From assembly GCA_046155605.1 (NCBI GenBank), contig JBJXFQ010000011.1:6842-70841 (forward strand): a DNA stretch of 64,000 nt, given 5' to 3'. The notes under the pieces were generated by a model. The model saw nothing but the letters and a program-made list of their open reading frames with translations. It did no database searches and was not told where the DNA came from. Positions 7,820 to 56,207 of the stretch are shown one piece after another. The position numbers and the translations under genes were made by a program. Every line of letters begins with the position of its first letter. Positions within the stretch are counted from its first letter, which is position 1. The stretch comes from Phycisphaerales bacterium (lineage in GTDB: Bacteria; Planctomycetota; Phycisphaerae; Phycisphaerales; UBA1924).

Positions 7820-8881
7820 TCAACGTGCAGGCTTGGTCCACCAGCACACAGGCACGTCCGCGAGTTCTACGCCGCTCGCCGACAACACGCGGAGTCGTCG
7901 AACGCCATGCACTGGCATCGCAGTCGTCGGCGTCAGCGAGATCTCAACGCGCGCGCCGTCCACGAGTCGCGCCTCCAGCCACGGCGTGGGAGGAATGAGC
8001 CGCAACTCAGCGGGCGTGAGCGTTGTGTCGGCATTGGGTCGAAGGGTGAGGGTGCGGGTCGTCGCGCGCTCGGGACGAAGAAACACGATCCCGCCGGGCT
8101 CGGTGCGATACCGCGCTCGCGTTTCGAGTCGGATCGCCACCCGCACCGACGGCTTCGCCTCCGCGTCGGCGGCCAGTTCGATCCAGCCGTCCATGATCCC
8201 TGGCTGCTCGGGCGCGGGTCCGGTCGCGCGCACGCGGAGCACGCCCAGCGGCAGCGCTGGGTCTTGCACGGGCGCGGCGGTCCACCCCGGCAGCGTGCAG
8301 GCAGCCCACGTCAGTTGCGGCTTCGTCTCTTTCTCCGTCAGGATTCGAACATGCACGTCGAGATGAGCGACGGTCCCCACGACCGCGGGAACGATGGCCG
8401 ATTCCGGCCGCACCACGAACTGCTGATCTGTCTGGTACCGGATCGCGCACACCCCGAGTTCAGTACGACCGACGTTCGCCTCGTTCCTCGCCGCGCGGAA
8501 GGTCACAGTCTGGACTTGCTCACCGGGCACGCTGGCGGGGGCGACGCGCATCGTCAGGACCGCTTGCGCCATCGGCGCGACCGATTCGGCATCAAACGCG
8601 GCATCCAGGCACCCGCAACTCTTGTTGACGATCCTCAGCGCGACCGGCGTGAGAGACGCGTTCTCGAAGGTGATGCGACGCGTCAGCGGCTTGCCGCTCT
8701 GGACTCGCCCCAGATTCTCGGCATCGGCGTTCACGACGCGAAGCCGCGTCAACTCGCCCTTGGGCAGTGCCGCTTGCTCGCCCGAGGGAGGGGGCTGAAG
8801 TCCTTTCGTCGCGCCGACGAGCGACACGACGAGGGCGATCGCCGTCGACGACGCGAGCGTCAGAATGGACGGCGATTTCAT
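7820..8881 (-). CDS. Secreted DUF1573-like (PapD/Ig-like fold) repeat protein
   Basis: 353-aa ORF with a signal peptide (MKSPSILTLASSTAIALVVSLVGA). It has the NKSCGCLDA motif characteristic of DUF1573. Its ATG overlaps the stop of the upstream gene (ATGA at 8878-8881). Confidence 0.6.
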   Translation of the reverse strand: MKSPSILTLASSTAIALVVSLVGATKGLQPPPSGEQAALPKGELTRLRVVNADAENLGRVQSGKPLTRRITFENASLTPVALRIVNKSCGCLDAAFDAESVAPMAQAVLTMRVAPASVPGEQVQTVTFRAARNEANVGRTELGVCAIRYQTDQQFVVRPESAIVPAVVGTVAHLDVHVRILTEKETKPQLTWAACTLPGWTAAPVQDPALPLGVLRVRATGPAPEQPGIMDGWIELAADAEAKPSVRVAIRLETRARYRTEPGGIVFLRPERATTRTLTLRPNADTTLTPAELRLIPPTPWLEARLVDGARVEISLTPTTAMPVHGVRRLRVLSASGVELADVPVCWWTKPAR

Positions 8882-10059
8882 GGACTGCGCTCCGCTCGGA
8901 CTCGATCAAACGAAGCACGGATTCCCGCAGGGGTCGTGCGCTCGGCCGTGAGCCCGTTGAACATGTCCGCATCCGGTGGAAGGCTGCGGAACATCTCATC
9001 GAAGGTCATCGGCTGGTTCACTCGGATGTTCGACGCGACCATGATCTGCGGCGAGAACGTCGTCTCTGAGGGCTCGAACACGGAGAAAGGCCCGATGACG
9101 ATCGATCGGCTCCGGTCGAGCACCTCCACAATCTGGAGCCGGTCGATCCATCGCTTCAGTTCCGGTGTCACGATGTCCGGGGGCAGTCCTTCGAGGCGGC
9201 GAGATAACTCGAAGTCCTTCTGCCGATCGGGTGAAAGCGGCGCATCGACATTCGGGACGATCTTCGAGTACATCGAAGCCTGGATCCCGACTCGCGGCAT
9301 CCAGATGCCGTCGACCTGAACCGCTTCGACCACCACCAGCGTCTCATAGACGTACGAGCCGGGGCGCGTCGCATGCATACGGATCACGCGGGGCATTCCT
9401 CCACGCTCCGGGTCCACGCGAACCTCGACATCGACGACGCCCTCGCTGGCCGCACCAACGCCGATCACCCCGGGCCACGGCTCCTCGGACGTGGGCTCGA
9501 GCGCAACGTGTTGTCGCGCTCGGCCCAATCGCCATGAGAGCGTGGCCGCACGCATGGGATCACCGGGCTCGGCGTAGCGCCCGAGCAGGCGCCAGAGATT
9601 GGCGCCGCCCGAGGAGTAGACGTCCGAGTTAGTCAGCATGCCGCGGTTGGTGGCGGGTGATCGCGTCACGCGGTACGCGCCATCGCCGAAAAAGAGCATC
9701 TCGTACTGCTCAACCTTCGACGGTTGACCCTCGACGTCCGGCGGATCACGAATCAACTTGGTTGCCCGCATGAACCACTCTCGTGTTTCGCTGGCATACA
9801 GCGTCGAACGCTGGAGAAGCATCCATGTGGCGAATGTGGCGAGAGTGCCGCCCCCAGTGTTCGTGCTGGGGCATGAGAACTCCTCCTGGTCCCACGAAAC
9901 GCAACGAACCGACCGTTCGTAGGCCTCCAGCATGCCGAGCACGGTCACGGGAATATTGTCTGGCGTAGTTGGGTCAGCCACTTGCCCTAGAGTGGAGCCG
10001 CAGACGCTCATCACGACTATCGCAGTCCTATAGAGGCGCGATCCGAATCGTGCTCCCAT
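8878..10059 (-). CDS. Hypothetical secreted protein (no domain recognised)
   Basis: 393-aa ORF with an N-terminal hydrophobic segment (AIVVMSVCGSTLGQ). It sits between two co-oriented genes with a 24-nt gap upstream and a 4-nt overlap downstream. G+C is visibly lower than in its surroundings. Confidence 0.5.
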   Translation of the reverse strand: MGARFGSRLYRTAIVVMSVCGSTLGQVADPTTPDNIPVTVLGMLEAYERSVRCVSWDQEEFSCPSTNTGGGTLATFATWMLLQRSTLYASETREWFMRATKLIRDPPDVEGQPSKVEQYEMLFFGDGAYRVTRSPATNRGMLTNSDVYSSGGANLWRLLGRYAEPGDPMRAATLSWRLGRARQHVALEPTSEEPWPGVIGVGAASEGVVDVEVRVDPERGGMPRVIRMHATRPGSYVYETLVVVEAVQVDGIWMPRVGIQASMYSKIVPNVDAPLSPDRQKDFELSRRLEGLPPDIVTPELKRWIDRLQIVEVLDRSRSIVIGPFSVFEPSETTFSPQIMVASNIRVNQPMTFDEMFRSLPPDADMFNGLTAERTTPAGIRASFDRVRAERSP

Positions 10060-10083: not shown

Positions 10084-10563
10084 TTAGAAGCACGACTTGA
10101 AGCTGCAACTCGTGCCTGACGGTGGGTAGGTCGCTGGTGGCGTGCAATAGCAGCCGTTGTTGTCCGGCGAGCCGGGTCCAATCGTGCCGCAGGCACCGGT
10201 GCCTTGCAAACCACATCTGATGAGAGGCAACGTGAGAGTGCATGTGTAGGTCGGGTTGTACTTGCAGAGTGTTGGAGAGATTTCGAGATTCCCTGAGCAG
10301 GCAGTACAGTTCCCGGTGCATCCCGCCGTGCATCCGATGAAGTTCCCACTGCCGTCGATCAACTTGGTGTTCGCCGGGCAGCCGGAGTCATTCGTCACGC
10401 ACTCGTAGTTGTTGACCGCCGCGCCATCACCAGGACCGAGCACGACGCCGACGAAGTCGCCATCGCCGGGTCCGGTGGAAGCAACATGAACGATCCGCTC
10501 CGGGCCAGCGAGCGCAACACTCGACAGAACGAGATTGACGACGATCACAAGCATGCACTTCAT
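10084..10563 (-). CDS. Small secreted cysteine-rich protein (14 Cys in the mature ~135 aa)
   Basis: The internal start MKCMLVIVVNLVLSSVALA-GP is chosen because AAGGAG (10575..10570) lies 6 nt upstream of the ATG at 10563. It has a Sec-type signal peptide. The mature part is rich in C, T, G and N (CTAGCTGNCTACSG, GCYCTPP, SCSFKSCF). Confidence 0.6.
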   Translation of the reverse strand: MKCMLVIVVNLVLSSVALAGPERIVHVASTGPGDGDFVGVVLGPGDGAAVNNYECVTNDSGCPANTKLIDGSGNFIGCTAGCTGNCTACSGNLEISPTLCKYNPTYTCTLTLPLIRCGLQGTGACGTIGPGSPDNNGCYCTPPATYPPSGTSCSFKSCF

Positions 10564-10615
10564 CGCGTACTCCTTTGTTCGTTGGACACGCACAGGTCAC
10601 GCAGTAATCCAGCGC

Positions 10616-10646
10616 ATGCTACCCCCCCCCCCCCCCTTGCTGTCAA
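10616..10646 (-). promoter_or_regulatory. Putative sigma70-type promoter with a G15 tract in the spacer
   Basis: The minus strand reads TTGACA (10646..10641), then gcaa + G15 (10640..10622), then TAGCAT (10621..10616). The spacer is 19 nt. The element lies ~55 nt upstream of the ATG at 10563. Confidence 0.45.
10622..10636. repeat. Homopolymeric C15/G15 tract
   Basis: Direct count in the sequence: a, then 15 c, then ttgc. Confidence 0.95.
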
Positions 10647-10709
10647 GCCCCACAATTCCGGCATAGCTCGACGGCAGACCGGCAGACATTCCCTTTCGCA
10701 AGAAACTGG

Positions 10710-10743
10710 AAAACCGCCCAGCGGATGGTGGTCCACGGGGCGG
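10710..10743 (-). terminator. Possible intrinsic terminator after the dockerin-tailed protein gene
   Basis: The minus strand reads CCGCCC..loop..GGGCGG followed by TTTTCC. It has a 6-bp GC stem, a long loop and a short U tract. Confidence 0.3.
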
Positions 10744-10789
10744 TGCCTCCTGATTGAGGAGTGGGAGAGCGGCGATCGACGCACAAGGC

Positions 10790-12559
10790 TCAGTTGCAGC
10801 CGGCCGCGAACCGGTTCATGAAGCAGGTGAAGTCGTTGACATTGAGCACGGGCGGGACGGTGCTCTGGTCGCAGTTGGCATAGGGGTCACCGGCCGCGAA
10901 CTTATTGAGGAAGCAGGTGAAGTCGTTGACGTTGAGCACGGGCGGCGTGGAACTCTGGTCGCAGTTGGCGTAGCAGGTCGTGGGCTGCTGCGTGGAGGCA
11001 TAGATGGTCCAGCCGAGGCCGAGCGGGCGGCCACTGCCGGCGTCCTGCGCCTGCGTCCAGTTGTTGGTGGCGACGTTGAAGACCATGGCGTCATCGGCAC
11101 CGGGGTTGCGATAGGGCGCGGGAACGGTCATGACGCTGCCGAAGCCAGCCATGCCGACGGTGGCGACTTCGATCCAGATGCGGCCGGGGGGAAGCGGGGG
11201 CATCCACGAGAGATCGACTTGGGCGGAGTTCACCGCGCGGGACGGATCGAGCGGATTGCCCATCACGCGGAATAGGTCGAGGAAGTAGCCGCCGATGAGG
11301 CGATTGGTCGCCATGTCGCCGGCGATGGGAACCCCGCCCGCGCCCGGGCGGCCGTTCCAAAGACGGACGAAAGCGGCCTGAATTGGCGTCCCCACGGGAG
11401 CGCCTGGCTGATAGAAGGGGAGTTCGAGACGCTCGAGTTGCGTGGGCGCGCCGGGGAGCATCACAAAATCATCGGCGACGTGGGCCGTGGTCACGACCGT
11501 GTTCAGGCCCATGGTGGTGTCGGTGAAGAGCGGCTCGGAGATGTTCGCACGATCGGGTCCGATCAGCAGCGTGGTGATGAGGGTGGGCACATCGCCGCCC
11601 GCGCCGCTGACGGCCTTATCGACCTCGCCCGCGCCGTCGAAGGAGAGTTCAACCTCGACGTTGTTGTTCGGATTCGCGCCGAGGTCATAGTCGATCTCGA
11701 TTTCGGGGAGCGGGAACGAGTAGGCCGCCGGCGCGCCGACGGCAGGGATCGGGAGCGCCGCGAAGACGCCCGTGGCGCTCGACTCGGTGACAAACCCCGC
11801 GCTAACGATGATCCGCAGCGTCCCGGCCTGGGTGGTGACGGTGCCCGGCAGGTCGATGGCGAGGAAACTTTCCGACGCCGTGTTGTCGAGCGTGATGCCA
11901 TCCCACGAGGTTTCCCCGCCGCCAACGCGGGACTGTATCGAAAGCAACTTGTAGTTCGAGGTCAGGCCGGTGGTGTGGTCGATGACCGTGGCGAGAATGG
12001 GGTCGGCGACCAGGCCTCGACTTGCCGAGCCGACCGCGGGCAGGGAGTTCTTCCAGTTGCCGGACCAACGGATGTTCCCGCGGCTGTCGAGGTAGCGACC
12101 TCGGGCCGTGACCTGCGCGCCGCTAAAGGCGGTGGCGCGGCCGCTGCCGCGAGGGGGATTCGGAGCGGGACATCCGGCGAGACTCGGATTGGCGTTCCCG
12201 CGGGCCTCGACCCAGCCCTCGACGCCGCCGACGGCCAGGACGGTGACGCCGGCTTCGGCGGTGGCGTCGGCGGCCGAGCCGGGGGCGAGCGAAGAGACGG
12301 TGCGGGTGGTGACGCCCAGGCCGATGGCGACGGACCCGCTCGCTGGGTCATCGTCGATGCAGTTGTTGGTGCGGGCGAAGGAGTGCTCCTTGTGGTTCAG
12401 GAAGACGGCGGGGGCCAGGTTCCCGTGCGTGCGGAGTTTGAAGTTATGGCGGACGCAATAGTCATTGCCCGCGCCTTGCGCGAGGGCGAGACTGGGCAGG
12501 CCAGCGAGGGCCAGGACAAGGGCGGCGGTACGCGGACGGATAGCGGTGGAACGGGCCAT
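10790..12559 (-). CDS. Secreted protein with tandem Cys-containing dockerin-like C-terminal module
   Basis: 589-aa ORF with a signal peptide (TAALVLALAGLPSLALAQG). The C-terminus reads YANCDQSSTPPVLNVNDFTCFLNKFAAGDPYANCDQSTVPPVLNVNDFTCFMNRFAAGCN. This is two copies of a D/N-rich loop plus F-x-C-F helix, like a duplicated dockerin Ca-binding repeat. Confidence 0.7.
   Translation of the reverse strand: MARSTAIRPRTAALVLALAGLPSLALAQGAGNDYCVRHNFKLRTHGNLAPAVFLNHKEHSFARTNNCIDDDPASGSVAIGLGVTTRTVSSLAPGSAADATAEAGVTVLAVGGVEGWVEARGNANPSLAGCPAPNPPRGSGRATAFSGAQVTARGRYLDSRGNIRWSGNWKNSLPAVGSASRGLVADPILATVIDHTTGLTSNYKLLSIQSRVGGGETSWDGITLDNTASESFLAIDLPGTVTTQAGTLRIIVSAGFVTESSATGVFAALPIPAVGAPAAYSFPLPEIEIDYDLGANPNNNVEVELSFDGAGEVDKAVSGAGGDVPTLITTLLIGPDRANISEPLFTDTTMGLNTVVTTAHVADDFVMLPGAPTQLERLELPFYQPGAPVGTPIQAAFVRLWNGRPGAGGVPIAGDMATNRLIGGYFLDLFRVMGNPLDPSRAVNSAQVDLSWMPPLPPGRIWIEVATVGMAGFGSVMTVPAPYRNPGADDAMVFNVATNNWTQAQDAGSGRPLGLGWTIYASTQQPTTCYANCDQSSTPPVLNVNDFTCFLNKFAAGDPYANCDQSTVPPVLNVNDFTCFMNRFAAGCN
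10800..10972. repeat. Tandem 90-nt direct repeat (2 copies) encoding the duplicated dockerin-like segment
   Basis: Copy A (10800-10882) and copy B (10890-10972) align with only scattered mismatches, for example ccggccgcgaac...gaagcaggtgaagtcgttgac(a/g)ttgagcacgggcgg. Confidence 0.9.
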
Positions 12560-12734: not shown

Positions 12735-13316
12735 ATGACCAGCCAGCCAGATCGGGTTGAGACGATGCGGCTGCTCTCGGGCGCGGGCCGCGGCGAGCAG
12801 CACGCGCTGGCCGGGCTGACCGAGCGCGTCTATGCCGAACTGCGCGCGCTGGCGGCCCATTACATCCAAAAGGAGCGCAGCGGTCACACGCTGGAGCCGA
12901 CGGCCCTCGTCCACGAGGTCTTCCTACGGCTGATCGATTCGAAGGGCCTCCAGGCCAACGACCGGCGTCACTTCTTCGCAATCGCCGCGGGGGCAATGCG
13001 TCGGGTTCTGGTCGATCACGCGCGGACGCGAGACGCGGCGAAACGCGGGGGCGGGCGGGCGCGGGTCGCACTCTCGACCCTCAACGCCGCGGCGACCAAC
13101 GCCGAGGCCGATGCCATCGTGCTCGACGAGGCGCTCACGAAACTCGCTAACTTTGACGCGCGGCAGGCGCGGATCGTCGAACTGCGGTTTTTCGGCGGGC
13201 TCACCGTCGAAGAGGTCGCCGACCTGCTCCAGGTCTCGAAGCGCACGATCGAGAGCGAATGGACGATGGCGCGGGCGTGGCTGCACCGCGAACTCTCCGG
13301 CGGAGCGAGCGCGTGA
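12735..13316 (+). CDS. ECF-type RNA polymerase sigma factor (Sig70_X6/TIGR02999-like, kinase-associated type)
   Basis: The start at ATG 12735 is preceded by aaagggag. Motifs include LTERVYAELRALAAHYIQKERSGHTLEPTALVHEVFLRL and a region 4 helix-turn-helix (FFGGLTVEEVADLLQVSKRTIESEW). The stop overlaps the next gene. Confidence 0.85.
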   Translation: MTSQPDRVETMRLLSGAGRGEQHALAGLTERVYAELRALAAHYIQKERSGHTLEPTALVHEVFLRLIDSKGLQANDRRHFFAIAAGAMRRVLVDHARTRDAAKRGGGRARVALSTLNAAATNAEADAIVLDEALTKLANFDARQARIVELRFFGGLTVEEVADLLQVSKRTIESEWTMARAWLHRELSGGASA

Positions 13317-16300
13317 CGCGCGAGCGGTGGGCGCGGGTGAAGGCGGTGTTCGAGGTCGCCCTGGCGGTGCCGGAGATGGAGCGTGCGGCGGCGGTCACGC
13401 GCGAGGCCGGTGATGATGCCGCGCTCGCCGCGGAAGTCGAATCGCTGCTGGCCCATCACGGACGGGCAACCGGATTCATGGAAGTCGGACGGTTGGCGAC
13501 CTTGACCGGCGGCGCATCCGCGCGCCCGGTTTCCACTCAGGCAACGCCAAAGGCGATCGGTGGGTACGCGATCGAGCGCGAGTTGGGCCGCGGCGGGATG
13601 GGCGTCGTCTATCTCGCACGCGATCCAGTGCTGGATCGGCCCGTGGCGATCAAGGTGTTGTCGGAAGCCATGTCGCGCGACGCCGAGGGGCTGATGCGGT
13701 TCGAGCGCGAGGCCCGCATCCTCGCCGCCCTCAACCACCCCAACATCGCGGCGATCCATAGCCTGGGCACCGATGACGGCGGCTCTCGCTTCCTCGTGCT
13801 CGAATACGCGGAAGGCAAATCACTCGGCGAGCGGCTCGGCGAGGGCGCGATGACCGTCGCCGAGGCCGCCGGCGTGCTCGCGCAGGTCGCTCGCGCCGTC
13901 GAGGCCGCTCACGACCGCGGCGTCATCCACCGTGATCTCAAGCCCGACAACATCCGCGTCAGCGCTGACGGCCTCGTCAAGGTGCTGGATTTCGGGCTCG
14001 CCAGGCGATGGGCCACGACGGATCATCCGAGCACGACGACACTGGACAGTTCGGCGGCGCTCCTCGCCACGACGCCCGGCCTCATCATGGGCACGCCCGG
14101 CTACATGAGCCCCGAGCAGGCCCGCGGGCAGGAGGTTGACAAGCGGACCGACATCTTCGCGCTCGGGTGTGTCGCGTATGCGTGCCTGACGGGCCGAGGG
14201 CCATTTTCCAAGGGCTCGATCGGCGATTCGGTGGCGGCGGTGCTCTCGGAAGAGGCGGATTGGAGCCGATTGCCGACTCAGTTGCCCGCCGGGCTGCGCG
14301 CGGTCCTGGAGCGATGCCTGGCGAAGGATCCTGAGCGGCGGCTGCGCGACGCGGGCGAGGTGCGCCGAGAGGCGGAGGCGGCAATCGGCGGCGGACGAAG
14401 CACGGGCGGGTTTGCTGGGCCGTCGCTCTTCGTGCAGGCCTCGCGATTGCCCGCGCCGGCGCCGACCAACCTCCCGCGCCAGATGACGAGCTTTGTCGGT
14501 CGGCACGCCGAGATCGATCGCGTCCGCGAGATGCTCGGCAGCGCGGCCTTGCTCACGCTGTCGGGCGCGGGCGGCTGCGGCAAGACGCGGCTGGCCCTCC
14601 GCATCGGTGAACTGATGGCCGGCGCGTTCACCGGAGGCGTCTGGCTCGTCGAGGTCGCCGGCGTCATGGATTCATCGCTCGTCGCGGCAGCGGCGGCGGC
14701 GGCCCTTGGCGTCAAGGAGCAGGCGGGCCGGCCTGTCGTGCAGTCGCTCGTCGATCGGCTCGAGACCAAGTCGGCCCTGCTGATCCTCGACAACTGCGAG
14801 CACCTGCTCGCGGCCTGCGGGGAACTCGTCGGCACGCTCCTCCGAGCCTGCCCGGACCTCCGCATCATCGCCACCAGCCGCGAGCCGCTGGGTGTCGTCG
14901 GCGAGGCGACCTATCGCGTGCCCTCGCTTGCCGTCCCGCCCGCGCGACACGAACCCGGGGCCGCCGTCGAGCGCTTCGAGGCCGTTGAACTCTTCGTCGA
15001 GCGTGCCCGTGCGGCGCGACCGGGCTTTGAGGTCACACCCGAGACCGCGGCGACCATTGCCGAGGTCTGCCGGCGGCTGGACGGGATCCCGCTGGCGATT
15101 GAGTTGGCCGCGGCGCGTATCCGCGTCCTCTCGCCCGAGCAGATCCACGCCAAACTCCACGACCGCTTCCGGCTGCTTATCGGCGGCAGCCGCACCGCCC
15201 TCGAACGGCACCAGACCCTACGGGCCGCCATCGATTGGAGTTACGACCTGCTGCCCGAGGACGAGCGACAGGTGCTGCGGACGCTCTCGGTCTTTGCCGG
15301 CGGCAGCACGCTCGAATCCGCGGGCGCGGTGTGCGCCGTCGACGAGTTCGGGCTGCTCGACGCGCTGACCCACCTGGCCGACAAATCGCTGGTCATGGTT
15401 GACGACCACGGAGAGCACCCTCGCTATCGCATGCTCGAAACGGTTCGGCAATACGCCCGCGAGAAGTTGCAATCGGCGTCGTCGGCCGAGGTCGAATCCG
15501 CGTGCGAGAAGCACCTGGACTACTTCTGCTCGCTCGTCGAGCGGGCCGAGCCCGAACTCTTCGGCCCGCAGCAGCAGGCCTGGCTCAAGCGGCTTCACGA
15601 TGAGCACGACAACTGCCTGGCGGCGCTCGACTGGTGCGCGGCCTGCGGGGACGCGGGACACCACGAGAAGGCGCTGCGAGTCTGCGGCGCGCTGGCGCGC
15701 TTCTGGAACCTGCGCGGGCACCTGGCCGTCGGCCGGTCCGCCGTCGGGCGCGCGATGGCGGCGGTCACGGATCGCACGGCCCGCGCGAGCCTGGCCAAGA
15801 GCCTCAATGCCGCGGGGGGGCTCGCGTGCGTGGCGGGCGACTATGCCGAAGCACGCGAGCATTGGACGGCCACGCTCGAGATGCAGCGGGCGCTGGGAAA
15901 CTCGCGGGGCGAGGCGGGCGCGCTCAATAACCTCGGGCTCGTCGCCGAGAACCGGGGCGACTATTCCGCGGCGCGGACGCTCTATGAGCGCGCGCTCGAG
16001 ATCAACCGCGGCCTGGGCAACAAGTCGTGGGAGGCCATCAACCTCAATAACCTCGGCAATGTCGCGTGGAACATGCGCGACAACGCCACGGCACGGCAGA
16101 TGTACTCGGCCGCCCTCGCGCTCAATCGCGAACTCGGCAATCGCTCTGATGAGGCGCGGAACCTCAACAACCTGGGGACGGTGGCGCGCGAGGACGGGCA
16201 GGCCGGCGAGGCGAGGGCGCTCTTCCGCGAGGCGATCAAGATCAAGCAGGAACTGGGCGATCGGCAGGGATTGGCGGTGTCGTTCGGGCAACTCGCTCTT

Positions 16301-16675
16301 GCGGCAATCGATGCGGGTGATCGGGCCGGGGCGCGCAAGTTGATCGCCGAGGCACTCACGATCCGCCGCGACATACCGGATCAACTTGGGCTGGCGATGT
16401 CGCTGGCCGAGGCCGCGGGGCTCGCCGTCGCTGAGGGTGCGTGGGCGCTGGCTGCCACCTGGTTCGCGGCTTCTGAGCGCCTCCGCCACAGGCTCGGCGT
16501 GCCGTTGGCGCTGGGTGAACGGGCGCGATACGAGCGCGACCTCTCCGCTCTTCGAAGGGCACTGGACGAGGCGGCGTTCAATGCTGCGTGGTCAGCAGGC
16601 ATCGCCGCGCCAACGGCACGGGCCACCGAACAGGCCGGCGCATGGCTGGCGAAGGGACCGACCGCGGAAGCGTGA
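13313..16675 (+). CDS. Ser/Thr protein kinase fused to a STAND-type (NB-ARC/AAA-like) NTPase and C-terminal TPR repeats
   Basis: The GTG start at 13313 overlaps the sigma stop (GTGA). Kinase motifs are VAIKVL, HRDLKPDNI, DFGLAR and GTPGYMSPE. A Walker A-like motif LSGAGGCGKTRLA and LILDNCEH follow. The C-terminus has many TPR-like repeats (ALNNLG.., AINLNNLGNVA.., ARNLNNLGTVA). Confidence 0.85.
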   Translation: MTRERWARVKAVFEVALAVPEMERAAAVTREAGDDAALAAEVESLLAHHGRATGFMEVGRLATLTGGASARPVSTQATPKAIGGYAIERELGRGGMGVVYLARDPVLDRPVAIKVLSEAMSRDAEGLMRFEREARILAALNHPNIAAIHSLGTDDGGSRFLVLEYAEGKSLGERLGEGAMTVAEAAGVLAQVARAVEAAHDRGVIHRDLKPDNIRVSADGLVKVLDFGLARRWATTDHPSTTTLDSSAALLATTPGLIMGTPGYMSPEQARGQEVDKRTDIFALGCVAYACLTGRGPFSKGSIGDSVAAVLSEEADWSRLPTQLPAGLRAVLERCLAKDPERRLRDAGEVRREAEAAIGGGRSTGGFAGPSLFVQASRLPAPAPTNLPRQMTSFVGRHAEIDRVREMLGSAALLTLSGAGGCGKTRLALRIGELMAGAFTGGVWLVEVAGVMDSSLVAAAAAAALGVKEQAGRPVVQSLVDRLETKSALLILDNCEHLLAACGELVGTLLRACPDLRIIATSREPLGVVGEATYRVPSLAVPPARHEPGAAVERFEAVELFVERARAARPGFEVTPETAATIAEVCRRLDGIPLAIELAAARIRVLSPEQIHAKLHDRFRLLIGGSRTALERHQTLRAAIDWSYDLLPEDERQVLRTLSVFAGGSTLESAGAVCAVDEFGLLDALTHLADKSLVMVDDHGEHPRYRMLETVRQYAREKLQSASSAEVESACEKHLDYFCSLVERAEPELFGPQQQAWLKRLHDEHDNCLAALDWCAACGDAGHHEKALRVCGALARFWNLRGHLAVGRSAVGRAMAAVTDRTARASLAKSLNAAGGLACVAGDYAEAREHWTATLEMQRALGNSRGEAGALNNLGLVAENRGDYSAARTLYERALEINRGLGNKSWEAINLNNLGNVAWNMRDNATARQMYSAALALNRELGNRSDEARNLNNLGTVAREDGQAGEARALFREAIKIKQELGDRQGLAVSFGQLALAAIDAGDRAGARKLIAEALTIRRDIPDQLGLAMSLAEAAGLAVAEGAWALAATWFAASERLRHRLGVPLALGERARYERDLSALRRALDEAAFNAAWSAGIAAPTARATEQAGAWLAKGPTAEA

Positions 16676-39755: not shown

Positions 39756-39783
39756 CGCAACATCATATCAAACTTGACGCGCG

Positions 39784-39793
39784 CCCCCCCCCC
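39784..39793. repeat. Homopolymeric C10/G10 tract
   Basis: Direct count: gcg, then 10 c, then agc. It lies 29-38 nt upstream of the minus-strand start at 39755. Confidence 0.95.
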
Positions 39794-40021
39794 AGCAACC
39801 GCCCTTTGCGGCGTCATCTTCCGCCGAGAATCTCCCCCGCCGCCTCTCGAATCGCCTTCCACGCCGCGCCAACATGCCGCTCTGCGAACACGTCTCACCG
39901 CCAGCGCCGAACTCGCCCGCTGGGCTACACCACGATCGGCTGGGCGCGATCTGCATGTTGTGATATCCTTCCACGATGGACCACTTCTGCCTCAAAGGCT
40001 CTGATGTGAAGGGTCTCACCC

Positions 40022-53426: not shown

Positions 53427-54527
53427 TCACCGCCGCCGACGCATGGCGAAGATCACCCCGCCCAGCACCAACGCCGCCGCCGTTCCCGGCGTCGGGACGC
53501 CCACCCACATGAAGGCGTGCTTCTGTGCGGTGTTGATGTCCTGCGCCCAGCCGCCGACGACGATCCGGCCATCGCCCGCCCAGATGCTCGTTGCCTCGGA
53601 AAGAAAGTAGTTGCTCGGTAGGAACGATTGTAAGTTGATCACGTTGTTGGGCGAGCCGAGCCAGACCAGAGCCACCTGCCCTGCCGAGCCCGACACGCTT
53701 CCCCAGCCCGCATGAAACTCCCCGGTCGTCGCCGTCAGGCGCGAGTAGCCCGCATTGGGCGGGTGCCAGTCCTCGAACGTCCCCGCGCTCCCGCGCCACA
53801 CCGCGGCGTGCTCGAGCGAGGTCGTCGCCTTCGCAAAGCCGACCTGGATGCCCGGCGCCATCCCCGCGATCAGGCTGTAGTACGTCGGGCCGGGATTGAG
53901 GTCGAGCCACGATGACGACCCATCCCACAGCGCCGCGTGTGATGCGGTGCCGCCCCCTGGGAACGGGACATTGACCCAGCCGCCCTGCCGCGTACCGTCC
54001 GTGGCCGTGGCCATGGACGACCCCGTGACGCCGGCCGGATGCAGGTCGATGAACGACGCGGCCGTACCGCGCCACATCACCGCCCGAGTACCGACACCAT
54101 CGCCTGTATACCCGGCCTGTTGATCGCCGCGCATGGACAGGGCGAGAGAAAGCAGTGATGGTGGGGCACCAACTGGGTGAAGCGAAACTGCCGACTGCGA
54201 CGATCCCCGCCACAGTGTCGCGAACCCACGAACATCTCCAACCTGCACATCATCGGCCATTCCCCACACATGGCCGTTATCGCCGACACCGGACGTCAAT
54301 GGCATCCATGACTGGCCGGTGCCTTGCCACAAACCGGGGCGAGTAGTGATTTGAGAAAATGCTGACCCACCTTGCTGGGTACCCCAGACAGCAAGGGTTT
54401 CCGATCGAGTTGCACCAATCGGGTTCAAGGGCGTCGCAGACCATTGCCATTGCGCAACGGCACAACTCGAACAAAAACCTGCCGCAACGGAGATTGCAAC
54501 AAGCCGGTATAACCTACGCATTGACAT
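53427..54527 (-). CDS. HAF-repeat PEP-CTERM secreted protein
   Basis: The start is at MSMRRLYRLVAISVAAG (54527). The repeats are ATLWRGSSQSAVSLHPVG, AVMWRGTAASFIDLHPAG, HAALWDGSSSWLDLNPG, HAAVWRGSAGTFEDWHPP and KHAFMWVG. The C-terminus reads VPTPGTAAALVLGGVIFAMRRRR. Confidence 0.75.
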   Translation of the reverse strand: MSMRRLYRLVAISVAAGFCSSCAVAQWQWSATPLNPIGATRSETLAVWGTQQGGSAFSQITTRPGLWQGTGQSWMPLTSGVGDNGHVWGMADDVQVGDVRGFATLWRGSSQSAVSLHPVGAPPSLLSLALSMRGDQQAGYTGDGVGTRAVMWRGTAASFIDLHPAGVTGSSMATATDGTRQGGWVNVPFPGGGTASHAALWDGSSSWLDLNPGPTYYSLIAGMAPGIQVGFAKATTSLEHAAVWRGSAGTFEDWHPPNAGYSRLTATTGEFHAGWGSVSGSAGQVALVWLGSPNNVINLQSFLPSNYFLSEATSIWAGDGRIVVGGWAQDINTAQKHAFMWVGVPTPGTAAALVLGGVIFAMRRRR

Positions 54528-54548
54528 GCTGTCAATATACTGTATGCT
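54521..54548 (+). promoter_or_regulatory. Putative sigma70-type promoter of the 54573 gene, -35 inside a TTGACA-N3-TGTCAA palindrome
   Basis: It has TTGACA (54521-54526), a 16-nt spacer and TATGCT (54543-54548). An aggaga SD lies at 54561-54566 and the ATG at 54573. Confidence 0.3.
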
Positions 54549-54572
54549 GGCGCTGTTGCAAGGAGAATTTCC

Positions 54573-56207
54573 ATGAAATCTCGGATCCTCGTCGTGCCCG
54601 CGGCGATCGCGTTGACGCAGATGACGAACGCACAAGTCGTCGGCCCGGCGATCCGAGCGCACTCAGCCAACACATCCGCGCGGTCATGTTCGGAGACAGC
54701 GATCATCGCCGCTGGCTCCGCCGTCGCGGTCGCCTACAACGACTATGCAGGGCAAATGCATTATTCGATCAGCACGAAAGCGTTGACAGGCGCAAACCCC
54801 TTCGCGGTCTTCGACGCCAACTTGACCGGAGTAGACTGTAACTCGACCGAGGTTCTGACTCGCGGCGTCGATCCGATGGTTGCGCGTAGCACAAACGGCG
54901 ACTTGTATCTGGGTGGTATGTTTCGCTATCCAATCGGAGGCCTTTCGTCCAGCAACGCTATTGCATTCTCCAGAAAGCCCGCGGGCTCGTCGTCGCTCGA
55001 TCCGGCGATCAACCTCGTCTGCTGGAGCCTCGAGATGGGAAGCGACAAGCCGCTCATGGCTATCGGACCCCGCCCGGGCGGAGCAACAGGCGAACGGCTT
55101 TACGCTGCGCACACACGCGTGAACCAGGGCAACTGTGGCAACTACAACAGCCGGTCGAGCTCGAAATTGCTGCTCGGATCAAGCATTGATGACGTGCCGA
55201 TCGGGTTGGACCTCAACTGCGGTGTCACAACCCTCGGGTGCATGCCCATCGTGCTGCCTTCGGGACCAAGCAAAGGCCGGCTGATCGTCACGATGCTGCC
55301 CGGCCCCACGCTCGGCAATCTGCCGCAGGTGTGGCGATCGGACAATGAGGGTTTGCCCACCGGCGGCGGACAATCATGGCTTCTTAGTTCGACGCCGACA
55401 CAAACTCGGACGCCCGGCGTCGCGGGTTTCGAGGACCTTCTCGCGTTTGACGGACAAGGAGCGAGCGCCGTCGTTCCCGGGAACTTCCGCGTACACAACT
55501 TCTCAGCGCTGGCAAATGACCCCGGAAATTCGAACAGTGTCTACCTCGTTTTCGTGGCCGGCACCCCGAGCGCCGGGGCGTCGAACTTGGACATCATCAT
55601 ATCGAAGAGCGAGGATGCCGGCGCGACCTTCCTCTCGACCAACACCCTCCACATCACCGACTCGCTGCTCGGGCTCGTCACCGGCACCGATCAGATCATG
55701 CCTTGGATCGCGGTGGACGTGTCGGGCGGCATCAACCTGCTCTTCTACTCGGTCAACGAGAACGCCACGACAGACATGGAAAATGTGCCGTACTTTCGTG
55801 TCTACTACGCGAGGTTTCCTTCGTTCAGCGCCACGAGCCCGCCCACGCCGTTCGTTCACGCACTCTCGCCGACCTTCTTGGTCCCGGTTGTCCCCGGCGC
55901 GTCGTGGCCCGATGGGGCGCAGGTCACCGGCGACTACCAGATGATCTGTGCCGACAGTTGCAATGCCTACGTCGCCTATATGAGCGCTGAAACGGGTGCC
56001 GCCGACATCTACGTCCGTAAGATCACCGGCCTGTGCGCCATCGCCGACTCCGATCAGGTCGGTGCAATCACGACGAACGATCCGCCGACCTTCGCCATGC
56101 AGTTCCTCGCCTGCGACCCGCTCGCCGACCTCACAAACAACGGCACCATCGACGCCGCGGACATGCAGCACTTCCTCACCGCCTTCGCCTGCCAGTGCAA
56201 TCCCTAG
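54573..56207 (+). CDS. Secreted BNR/Asp-box (sialidase-like beta-propeller) protein with dockerin-like C-terminal module
   Basis: 544 aa with a signal peptide (ILVVPAAIALTQMTNAQ). It has one clear Asp-box, SEDAGATF (S-x-D-x-G-x-T-F). The C-terminus reads DSDQVGAITTNDPPTFAMQFLACDP + DLTNNGTIDAADMQHFLTAFACQCNP. The fold assignment is tentative. Confidence 0.5.
   Translation: MKSRILVVPAAIALTQMTNAQVVGPAIRAHSANTSARSCSETAIIAAGSAVAVAYNDYAGQMHYSISTKALTGANPFAVFDANLTGVDCNSTEVLTRGVDPMVARSTNGDLYLGGMFRYPIGGLSSSNAIAFSRKPAGSSSLDPAINLVCWSLEMGSDKPLMAIGPRPGGATGERLYAAHTRVNQGNCGNYNSRSSSKLLLGSSIDDVPIGLDLNCGVTTLGCMPIVLPSGPSKGRLIVTMLPGPTLGNLPQVWRSDNEGLPTGGGQSWLLSSTPTQTRTPGVAGFEDLLAFDGQGASAVVPGNFRVHNFSALANDPGNSNSVYLVFVAGTPSAGASNLDIIISKSEDAGATFLSTNTLHITDSLLGLVTGTDQIMPWIAVDVSGGINLLFYSVNENATTDMENVPYFRVYYARFPSFSATSPPTPFVHALSPTFLVPVVPGASWPDGAQVTGDYQMICADSCNAYVAYMSAETGAADIYVRKITGLCAIADSDQVGAITTNDPPTFAMQFLACDPLADLTNNGTIDAADMQHFLTAFACQCNP

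Follow-up and report, generated by a model that had tools for sequence, protein, structure and literature searches.

A candidate phase-variable promoter tract upstream of a secreted-protein operon in an uncultured planctomycete

The DNA considered here is a 64-kb stretch, referred to as the window, from a metagenome-assembled genome (MAG) of the Phycisphaerales, phylum Planctomycetota, in which a run of 15 guanines on the minus strand lies between a perfect -35 hexamer and a -10 hexamer upstream of a three-gene operon. This G15 run is probably a hypermutable slippage tract in the spacer of a sigma-70-type promoter, acting as a transcriptional switch of the operon of the kind described for porA and tp0126. 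Replication slippage would add G residues to the spacer or remove them, each gain or loss altering the distance and the rotational phasing of the -35 relative to the -10 element and, through these, the use of the promoter by RNA polymerase. The window allele, with its spacer of 19 nt, is predicted to be weak or off, and alleles with G13-G14 would have the optimal spacer of 17-18 nt; a population would thereby hold heritable, reversible on, low and off variants of a surface or secreted module, i.e. a contingency locus. We infer from the sequence that the TTGACA/TAGCAT boxes would form a working promoter, that tract length would control transcription and that switching would be frequent and reversible; the selective agent presumably acts at the cell surface, with phage, grazers or attachment as the candidates. 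The features of the locus are as follows.

7820-8881, minus strand: gene 3, encoding a 353-aa DUF1573 protein
8878-10059, minus strand: gene 2, encoding a 393-aa protein of an unnamed family with a signal-like N-terminus
10084-10563, minus strand: gene 1, encoding a 159-aa secreted Cys-rich protein (NCBI tag ACKVW3_02045)
10561-10563, minus strand: ATG of gene 1, read from the sequence
10570-10575, minus strand: Shine-Dalgarno (SD) sequence AAGGAG of gene 1, read from the sequence
10607-10611, minus strand: predicted transcription start, 6-10 nt past the -10, placed by sigma-70-type promoter geometry
10616-10621, minus strand: -10 hexamer TAGCAT (TAnnnT), read from the sequence
10622-10636, minus strand: G15 homopolymer, the proposed slippage tract, read from the sequence
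10637-10640, minus strand: GCAA, the part of the spacer without the repeat, read from the sequence
10641-10646, minus strand: -35 hexamer TTGACA, perfect consensus, read from the sequence
10709-10744, minus strand: terminator of the upstream gene, a hairpin followed by a T-run
10790-12559, minus strand: upstream neighbour, encoding a 589-aa secreted protein with a C-terminal GC-type dockerin domain

The order TTGACA-GCAA-G15-TAGCAT, with a spacer of 19 nt, the homopolymer directly adjoining the -10 hexamer and AAGGAG and the ATG at 10563 downstream, is exactly that given for the minus strand in a first-pass annotation of this DNA, and the three-gene layout which that annotation placed behind the promoter was confirmed by the coordinates (10563-10084, 10059-8878 and 8881-7820). 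Genes 1 and 2 are 24 nt apart and the start of gene 3 overlaps the stop of gene 2 by 4 nt. The gene 1 protein consists of a signal peptide and a domain with 14 invariant cysteines, and the gene 2 family has 61 representatives in 1.84 billion proteins. Searches of Pfam, NCBIfam and PADLOC returned nothing for genes 1 and 2, a PDB profile search with their two proteins gave no match, and AlphaFold2 models of the 393-aa and Cys-rich proteins reached a pLDDT of about 31. Several calls in the deposited annotations differ from our reading: NCBI gives gene 2 of the window (8878-10059) a length of 356 aa, against 393 in relatives; the Cys-rich gene is left uncalled in JACMLW01 (L013 9403-9987); and that of L136 (940-1662) is called as 240 aa, right through the promoter and its G13 tract.

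The tract is located in a 226-nt intergenic region, downstream of the terminator of the upstream gene. The hairpin of this terminator is conserved in two relatives (L005 and L007), in which a comparison of intergenic regions also found the AAGGA of gene 1 to be kept, and because the conserved terminator insulates the operon from the gene upstream, the operon needs a promoter of its own. A scan with 16-18-nt spacers found no competing canonical promoter in the 226-nt gap, and neither an Rfam match nor a predicted hairpin or other significant fold was found at the tract. Further upstream of the dockerin-protein gene, on the opposite strand, the window encodes an ECF sigma factor (PF07638) and a 1138-aa Ser/Thr kinase with TPR repeats (12738-16675); the pair occupies the same place in L005 and may regulate the neighbouring secreted-protein genes.

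That the first-pass annotation called a 15-nt run conspicuous is borne out by a census of the window, which at 66.5% GC contains just two homopolymers of 8 or more bases, the G15 and a C10 at 39784-39793, the third-ranking ones having a length of 7. An independent-base model predicts 0.009 G/C runs of at least 15 bases in the window, a first-order Markov model 5.5e-4. The promoter pattern is likewise rare: TTGACA-N15-20-TAnnnT occurs twice, against 0.13 expected, and both copies lie directly upstream of the AAGGAG-ATG of a gene for a signal-peptide protein. The second copy (54521-54548) has a 16-nt spacer and TATGCT as its -10, and the organism of the window appears to use canonical -35/-10 boxes because this second TTGACA-N16-TAnnnT also precedes AAGGAG-ATG. 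In its wider context, TTGACATGCTGTCAATATACTGTATGCT (window 54521-54573), the perfect -35, 16-nt spacer and TATGCT stand just before the AAGGAG and ATG of a gene for a 544-aa signal-peptide protein, and the stretch holds an inverted repeat, TTGACA/TGTCAA, as a possible operator.

To our knowledge planctomycete promoters are poorly characterised, and the true transcription start or sigma site might lie elsewhere, for example at a promoter read by an ECF sigma factor such as that of the conserved sigma/kinase pair nearby, which would leave the tract upstream of the promoter or in the 5' UTR rather than in a spacer. We regard this as very unlikely: in five lineages the tract stands between a perfect TTGACA and a TAnnnT amid diverging sequence, the only other perfect TTGACA-N16-TAnnnT of the window is also found just upstream of an SD-ATG, and the enrichment of TAnnnT right after such tracts among the metagenome matches listed (described below) argues for a promoter class.

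The second long homopolymer (window 39774-39793, in the intergenic region 39756-40021) is a C10 on the plus strand and thus a G10 on the minus strand. Read on the minus strand, the G10 stands about where a -35 would be expected for the TGaTATGAT downstream of it, a sequence like an extended -10 that is 12 nt before the ATG (39755) of a gene for a 203-aa membrane protein; on the plus strand the C10 comes after TTGACG-CGCG and faces the gene of a 769-aa GC-type dockerin protein. Among contigs of the same strain, L135 also has G10 and L134 breaks 2 nt past the tract. This tract may be a second switch, resembling that of opc.

The operon is rare, but its gene order recurs in several uncultured lineages. 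A scan of genome contigs with an alignment of the 393-aa protein matched only the JAEUIZ MAG, a first metagenome protein scan was without matches and word-indexed protein searches yielded only three relatives; the further lineages came from an exhaustive profile search. The three-gene synteny is retained in L005, L007, L013, L136, L139 and L141. Upstream of gene 1, four lineages in addition to the window have a readable promoter of the same construction, as listed here; the contigs L139 and L140 both end at the equivalent position, where the tract is unreadable, and L138 is without the upstream region.

L005/L006, MAG JAEUIZ01: TTGACA-AGCGA-G11-TAATCT, spacer 16 nt
L007-L012, six Logan contigs: TTGACA-AGCA-Gn-TAGTCT, spacer 18 to at least 23 nt
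L013, MAG JACMLW01: TTGACA-GCGAG-T11-GG-TAGGAT, spacer 18 nt
L136/L137, one Logan and one JGI assembly, identical: TTGACA-AGT-G13-TACTTT, spacer 16 nt

The TTGACA is identical in all five lineages, the -10 hexamers of the relatives (TAATCT, TAGTCT, TAGGAT and TACTTT) stand at the same place as TAGCAT, and the homopolymer is preceded in the relatives by 3-5 non-repeat bases (AGCGA, AGCA, GCGAG or AGT). Both hexamers and the intervening homopolymer are kept, whereas the remaining intergenic sequence diverges and the 393-aa proteins are only 37-71% identical across the five lineages. L005/L006 is 61% identical in gene 1 and 70% in gene 2; L013 has 37-39% identity in gene 2, and L007 and L005, the latter with its tract of G11, share 95.7% of their nucleotides. 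A homopolymer between recognisable -35 and -10 hexamers, as in porA and tp0126, was found in the window and in four other lineages, and at 15 bases that of the window has the length of a slippable run (about 8 or more). Because the repeat base differs, being G in some lineages and T in L013, the conserved property is, on this comparison, the slippery spacer and not a G-specific motif.

The T11 orthologue also bears on another explanation, namely that the G-run serves as a G-quadruplex or as a binding site for a protein in the promoter, its variation in length being incidental. A three-tetrad G-quadruplex with 1-nt loops needs a minimum of G15, which the window has and the G11 (L005) and G13 (L136/L137) relatives do not, so that such a structure is impossible in them, and the capacity for four G-runs is not conserved (T11 in L013, only G11 in L005). 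Lengths range from 11 to at least 19, and hairpin prediction and Rfam were both negative at the tract. One same-strain contig, L001, starts with CCCCC-AGCAT, which would be compatible with a polymerase stalling on a structured G-template during sequencing; on balance we find a quadruplex or binding site highly improbable, and the idea was rejected on the T11 orthologue.

The spacers seen are 16, 16, 18, 18, 19, 20, 20, 22 and at least 23 nt. They straddle the optimum, as expected for a mixture of on and off alleles if spacing does govern the promoter, and most alleles exceed the optimal length. Position -14 is a G in every promoter with a G tract, and in L013 the extended -10 is complete (TGn); this may reduce the dependence on -35 spacing, in which case the tract would act as a rheostat instead of an on/off switch.

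Variation in tract length among near-identical genomes was found in the sister lineage L007-L012. Its six contigs each come from a different sequencing run, and their 15 possible pairings, aligned over 2.7-6.2 kb, show 0 mismatches; gaps in the tract are the sole differences between them, with n = 16, at least 15, 16, 14, at least 19 and 18; the two lower bounds come from contigs that start inside the tract, and lengths of 14-19 are here those of short-read de Bruijn assemblies and not of reads, so that some error is expected in them. For the strain of the window G15 is the sole length seen. Three same-strain Logan contigs, 100% identical to the window, end at or just past the tract (at 10620, 10610 and 10606). 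Such breaks were considered as a sign of heterogeneity and down-weighted, since the G10 tract, though apparently stable, interrupts contigs as well, and low coverage or failed sequencing can end a contig where no heterogeneity exists.

Contigs ending at the tract begin with poly-C where poly-G is expected (L001 1-5 and L140 1-10), L001 reading CCCCC-AGCAT where the window has GGGGGT-AGCAT. These starts probably derive from opposite-strand reads that stalled on the G template and were called as dark-cycle G's. An invertible element, which the start of L001 had suggested, is the less likely cause; only 5-10 bases are readable, and the left-end poly-C of L140 is alike.

Illumina sequencing handles long runs of G poorly, the tract interrupts several contigs and the poly-C starts of L001 and L140 resemble a dark-cycle artefact, all of which could be taken to mean that the tract itself, or its differences in length, arose in sequencing or assembly. 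This seems hardly credible. Homopolymers stand at the same place in independent NCBI (three MAGs), JGI and Logan assemblies, G13 is agreed by two independent assemblies (L136/L137), and the spread of 14 versus 18 versus at least 19 exceeds typical consensus error; in the contigs L141-L150, described next, lengths of G8, G9 and G10 can be read accurately, and a C8 run serving as control does not vary.

In a further lineage the repeat tract is found inside the gene instead. The contigs L141-L150, from ten runs and 99.9-100% identical, have a promoter without a tract and carry instead a G-run at codons 55-57 of the Cys-rich gene. Six contigs have G9, which gives an intact 183-aa protein, while G8 (L144) and G10 (L146) lead to stops within a few codons and two contigs start within the G-run; a C8 run elsewhere in these contigs never varies. 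Two distinct repeat mechanisms thus target one gene family, which argues for selection acting on its switchability. The in-gene G9 (L141 1411-1447; likewise L142-L148) is flanked by TTGACA-N10 and TAGACC, which may be a coincidence or the vestige of a promoter tract; 163 nt upstream, the L141 gene has an SD, ATG and signal peptide of its own. In both L007-L012 and L141-L150, (near-)identical multi-kb sequences recur in runs with unrelated prefixes (SRR and ERR), which points to clonal populations of wide distribution, or else to one enrichment or culture behind the runs.

It is against this background that the tract has to be weighed as a neutral mutational hotspot, that is, as a real and variable homopolymer with little effect on the operon and no selected role in switching. 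In its favour, the spacers of many alleles (20, 22 and at least 23 nt) lie well away from the optimum of 17 nt, and with G at -14 (TGn in L013) the promoter could be less sensitive to spacing. Long homopolymers that are not maintained decay fast, yet five lineages at 37-71% identity keep one, once with another base; the same gene carries a frameshifting tract in another lineage, and the 64 kb contain just one other run of at least 8 bases. We therefore think a neutral hotspot unlikely, and favour the slippage switch. The boxes and homopolymer in five lineages, variable in length and base, lend support to the slipped-strand reading of the promoter spacer that the first-pass annotation had put forward, and the comparison of orthologous regions, which it had proposed as a check, favours a switch (G11, G13, G14 to at least 19 and T11 in the promoter; G8/9/10 in the gene). 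The assembly artefact of which it had warned is countered by the homopolymers found at the same place in the NCBI, JGI and Logan assemblies.

A pattern scan for TTGACA-N4-5-G(11 or more) in metagenomes found at least 120 loci. Among the matches listed, TAnnnT follows directly after the G-run at 19 of 98 usable loci (14 of 92 when counted as unique), against 1.5% at control offsets, an enrichment at the direct position of about 10-fold (p ~1e-10), and the genes downstream of the listed matches are mostly of signal-peptide, lipoprotein or prepilin-like type. That these loci represent the same operon was ruled out, tblastn being without hits; they are independent loci, and on this enrichment the TTGACA-N4-5-poly-G-TAnnnT architecture is a recurrent class of putative promoter.

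Two groups of these loci can be described individually. The human-gut loci L029, L036, L075 and L082 (also L022 and L040) read AATTTTAATC-TTGACA-ATCA-Gn-TAAACT/TAGACT, with n = 11, 11, 16 and 19 and a variant with n = 12; the gene that follows encodes a lipoprotein (MKLFKKVLAVALVGAMAVSMLTAC...). At about 55-58% GC, the source would seem to be a gut bacterium with a promoter tract of variable length. The contig ERZ1066117.20 (235 kb, 65% GC) carries two such promoters (L074 and L087), namely TTGACA-GGAGC-G14-TAGACT before a prepilin-like gene and TTGACA-GGAGC-G13-TAACTT, and both share an upstream GAAAAnCnCG motif, which hints that genomes with several such switches exist.

Taken further, the locus could be an old, selected contingency locus shared by an uncultured clade of Phycisphaerae, switchable down to 37% identity by a G or T tract in the spacer or by a G tract in the gene, and at the same time one case of a TTGACA-N4-5-poly-G-TAnnnT class widespread in uncultured environmental and gut bacteria; we offer this wider proposal tentatively, as a real possibility about which we remain in some doubt. 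If it holds, bacteria other than pathogens would make general use of stochastic, repeat-based switching of their surface proteins, a strategy that could be read from metagenomes. The signature TTGACA-N4-5-Gn-TAnnnT could then be mined to chart switchable genes in bacteria that cannot be cultured. The tracts also cause errors of annotation and assembly, with reading frames called through promoters, small genes missed and contigs broken.

Repeat-driven phase variation has been worked out almost wholly in host-associated pathogens, and here the same architecture is encountered in an uncultured planctomycete. The mechanism is classical and its occurrence in Planctomycetota would be new: a full-text literature search found no description of repeat-mediated phase variation in this phylum, in agreement with the first-pass annotation, which knew of no such precedent, and the phylum of the source was confirmed. 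The locus would offer a concrete case in which bet-hedging by an environmental planctomycete can be tested, with the Cys-rich/393-aa/DUF1573 module as a pointer to fluctuating selection by phage, grazers or attachment.

Among the known systems, the poly-A of Mycoplasma hyorhinis vlp, the poly-C of Bordetella fim and the TA-repeats of Haemophilus hif are promoter-spacing tracts that switch surface-protein genes. From the PVC group, the only tracts that we know to have been reported are those of Chlamydia, in coding sequences and in promoters. The T11 of L013 parallels the A/T tract of vlp, and vlp, fim and hif differ from the window in their repeats, activators (BvgA for fim) and hosts.

A different use of poly-G is made by the Neisseria genes hmbR, hpuAB and lgtA, which are switched by frameshifts in an intragenic tract (PMC3786947, PMC3447861). 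The G8/G9/G10 alleles at codons 55-57 of L141-L150, in frame or frameshifted, are alike, but the likeness is limited to these relatives, as the G15 of the window is intergenic, 58 nt upstream of the ATG and not inside a reading frame. Homopolymers have likewise been described in Bordetella (PMC1891110). In opc of Neisseria meningitidis, 11 C residues give low and 12 high expression (PMC3447861), so that, as proposed here, a promoter homopolymer sets graded expression; unlike the poly-C of opc, which overlaps the -35, the tract of the window begins 4 nt after an intact TTGACA, and it is the C10 at 39784-39793 that shows the closer likeness to opc.

The closest counterparts are those with a poly-G between the -35 and -10, porA and tp0126, for which the best expression is obtained at 17 nt (PMC7864442). 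In tp0126 of Treponema pallidum, which encodes an OmpW homologue, tract lengths vary within and between isolates, and Treponema reading frames have been mis-annotated through the promoter (PMC7864442), just as the gene of L136 is miscalled. The tp0126 and tpr systems belong to another phylum and other gene families and have shorter tracts (7-11 G), and in tprL the tract overlaps the -10 region. Compared with porA of N. meningitidis, the tract of the window is longer (15, and at least 19 in relatives, versus about 9-11), its host is an uncultured planctomycete, presumably free-living, whereas porA belongs to a host-restricted pathogen, and it would gate a three-gene operon. In porA, a surface protein gene, as in the window, a G tract fills the spacer between the two hexamers; its length sets the transcription of porA and would do the same for the operon.
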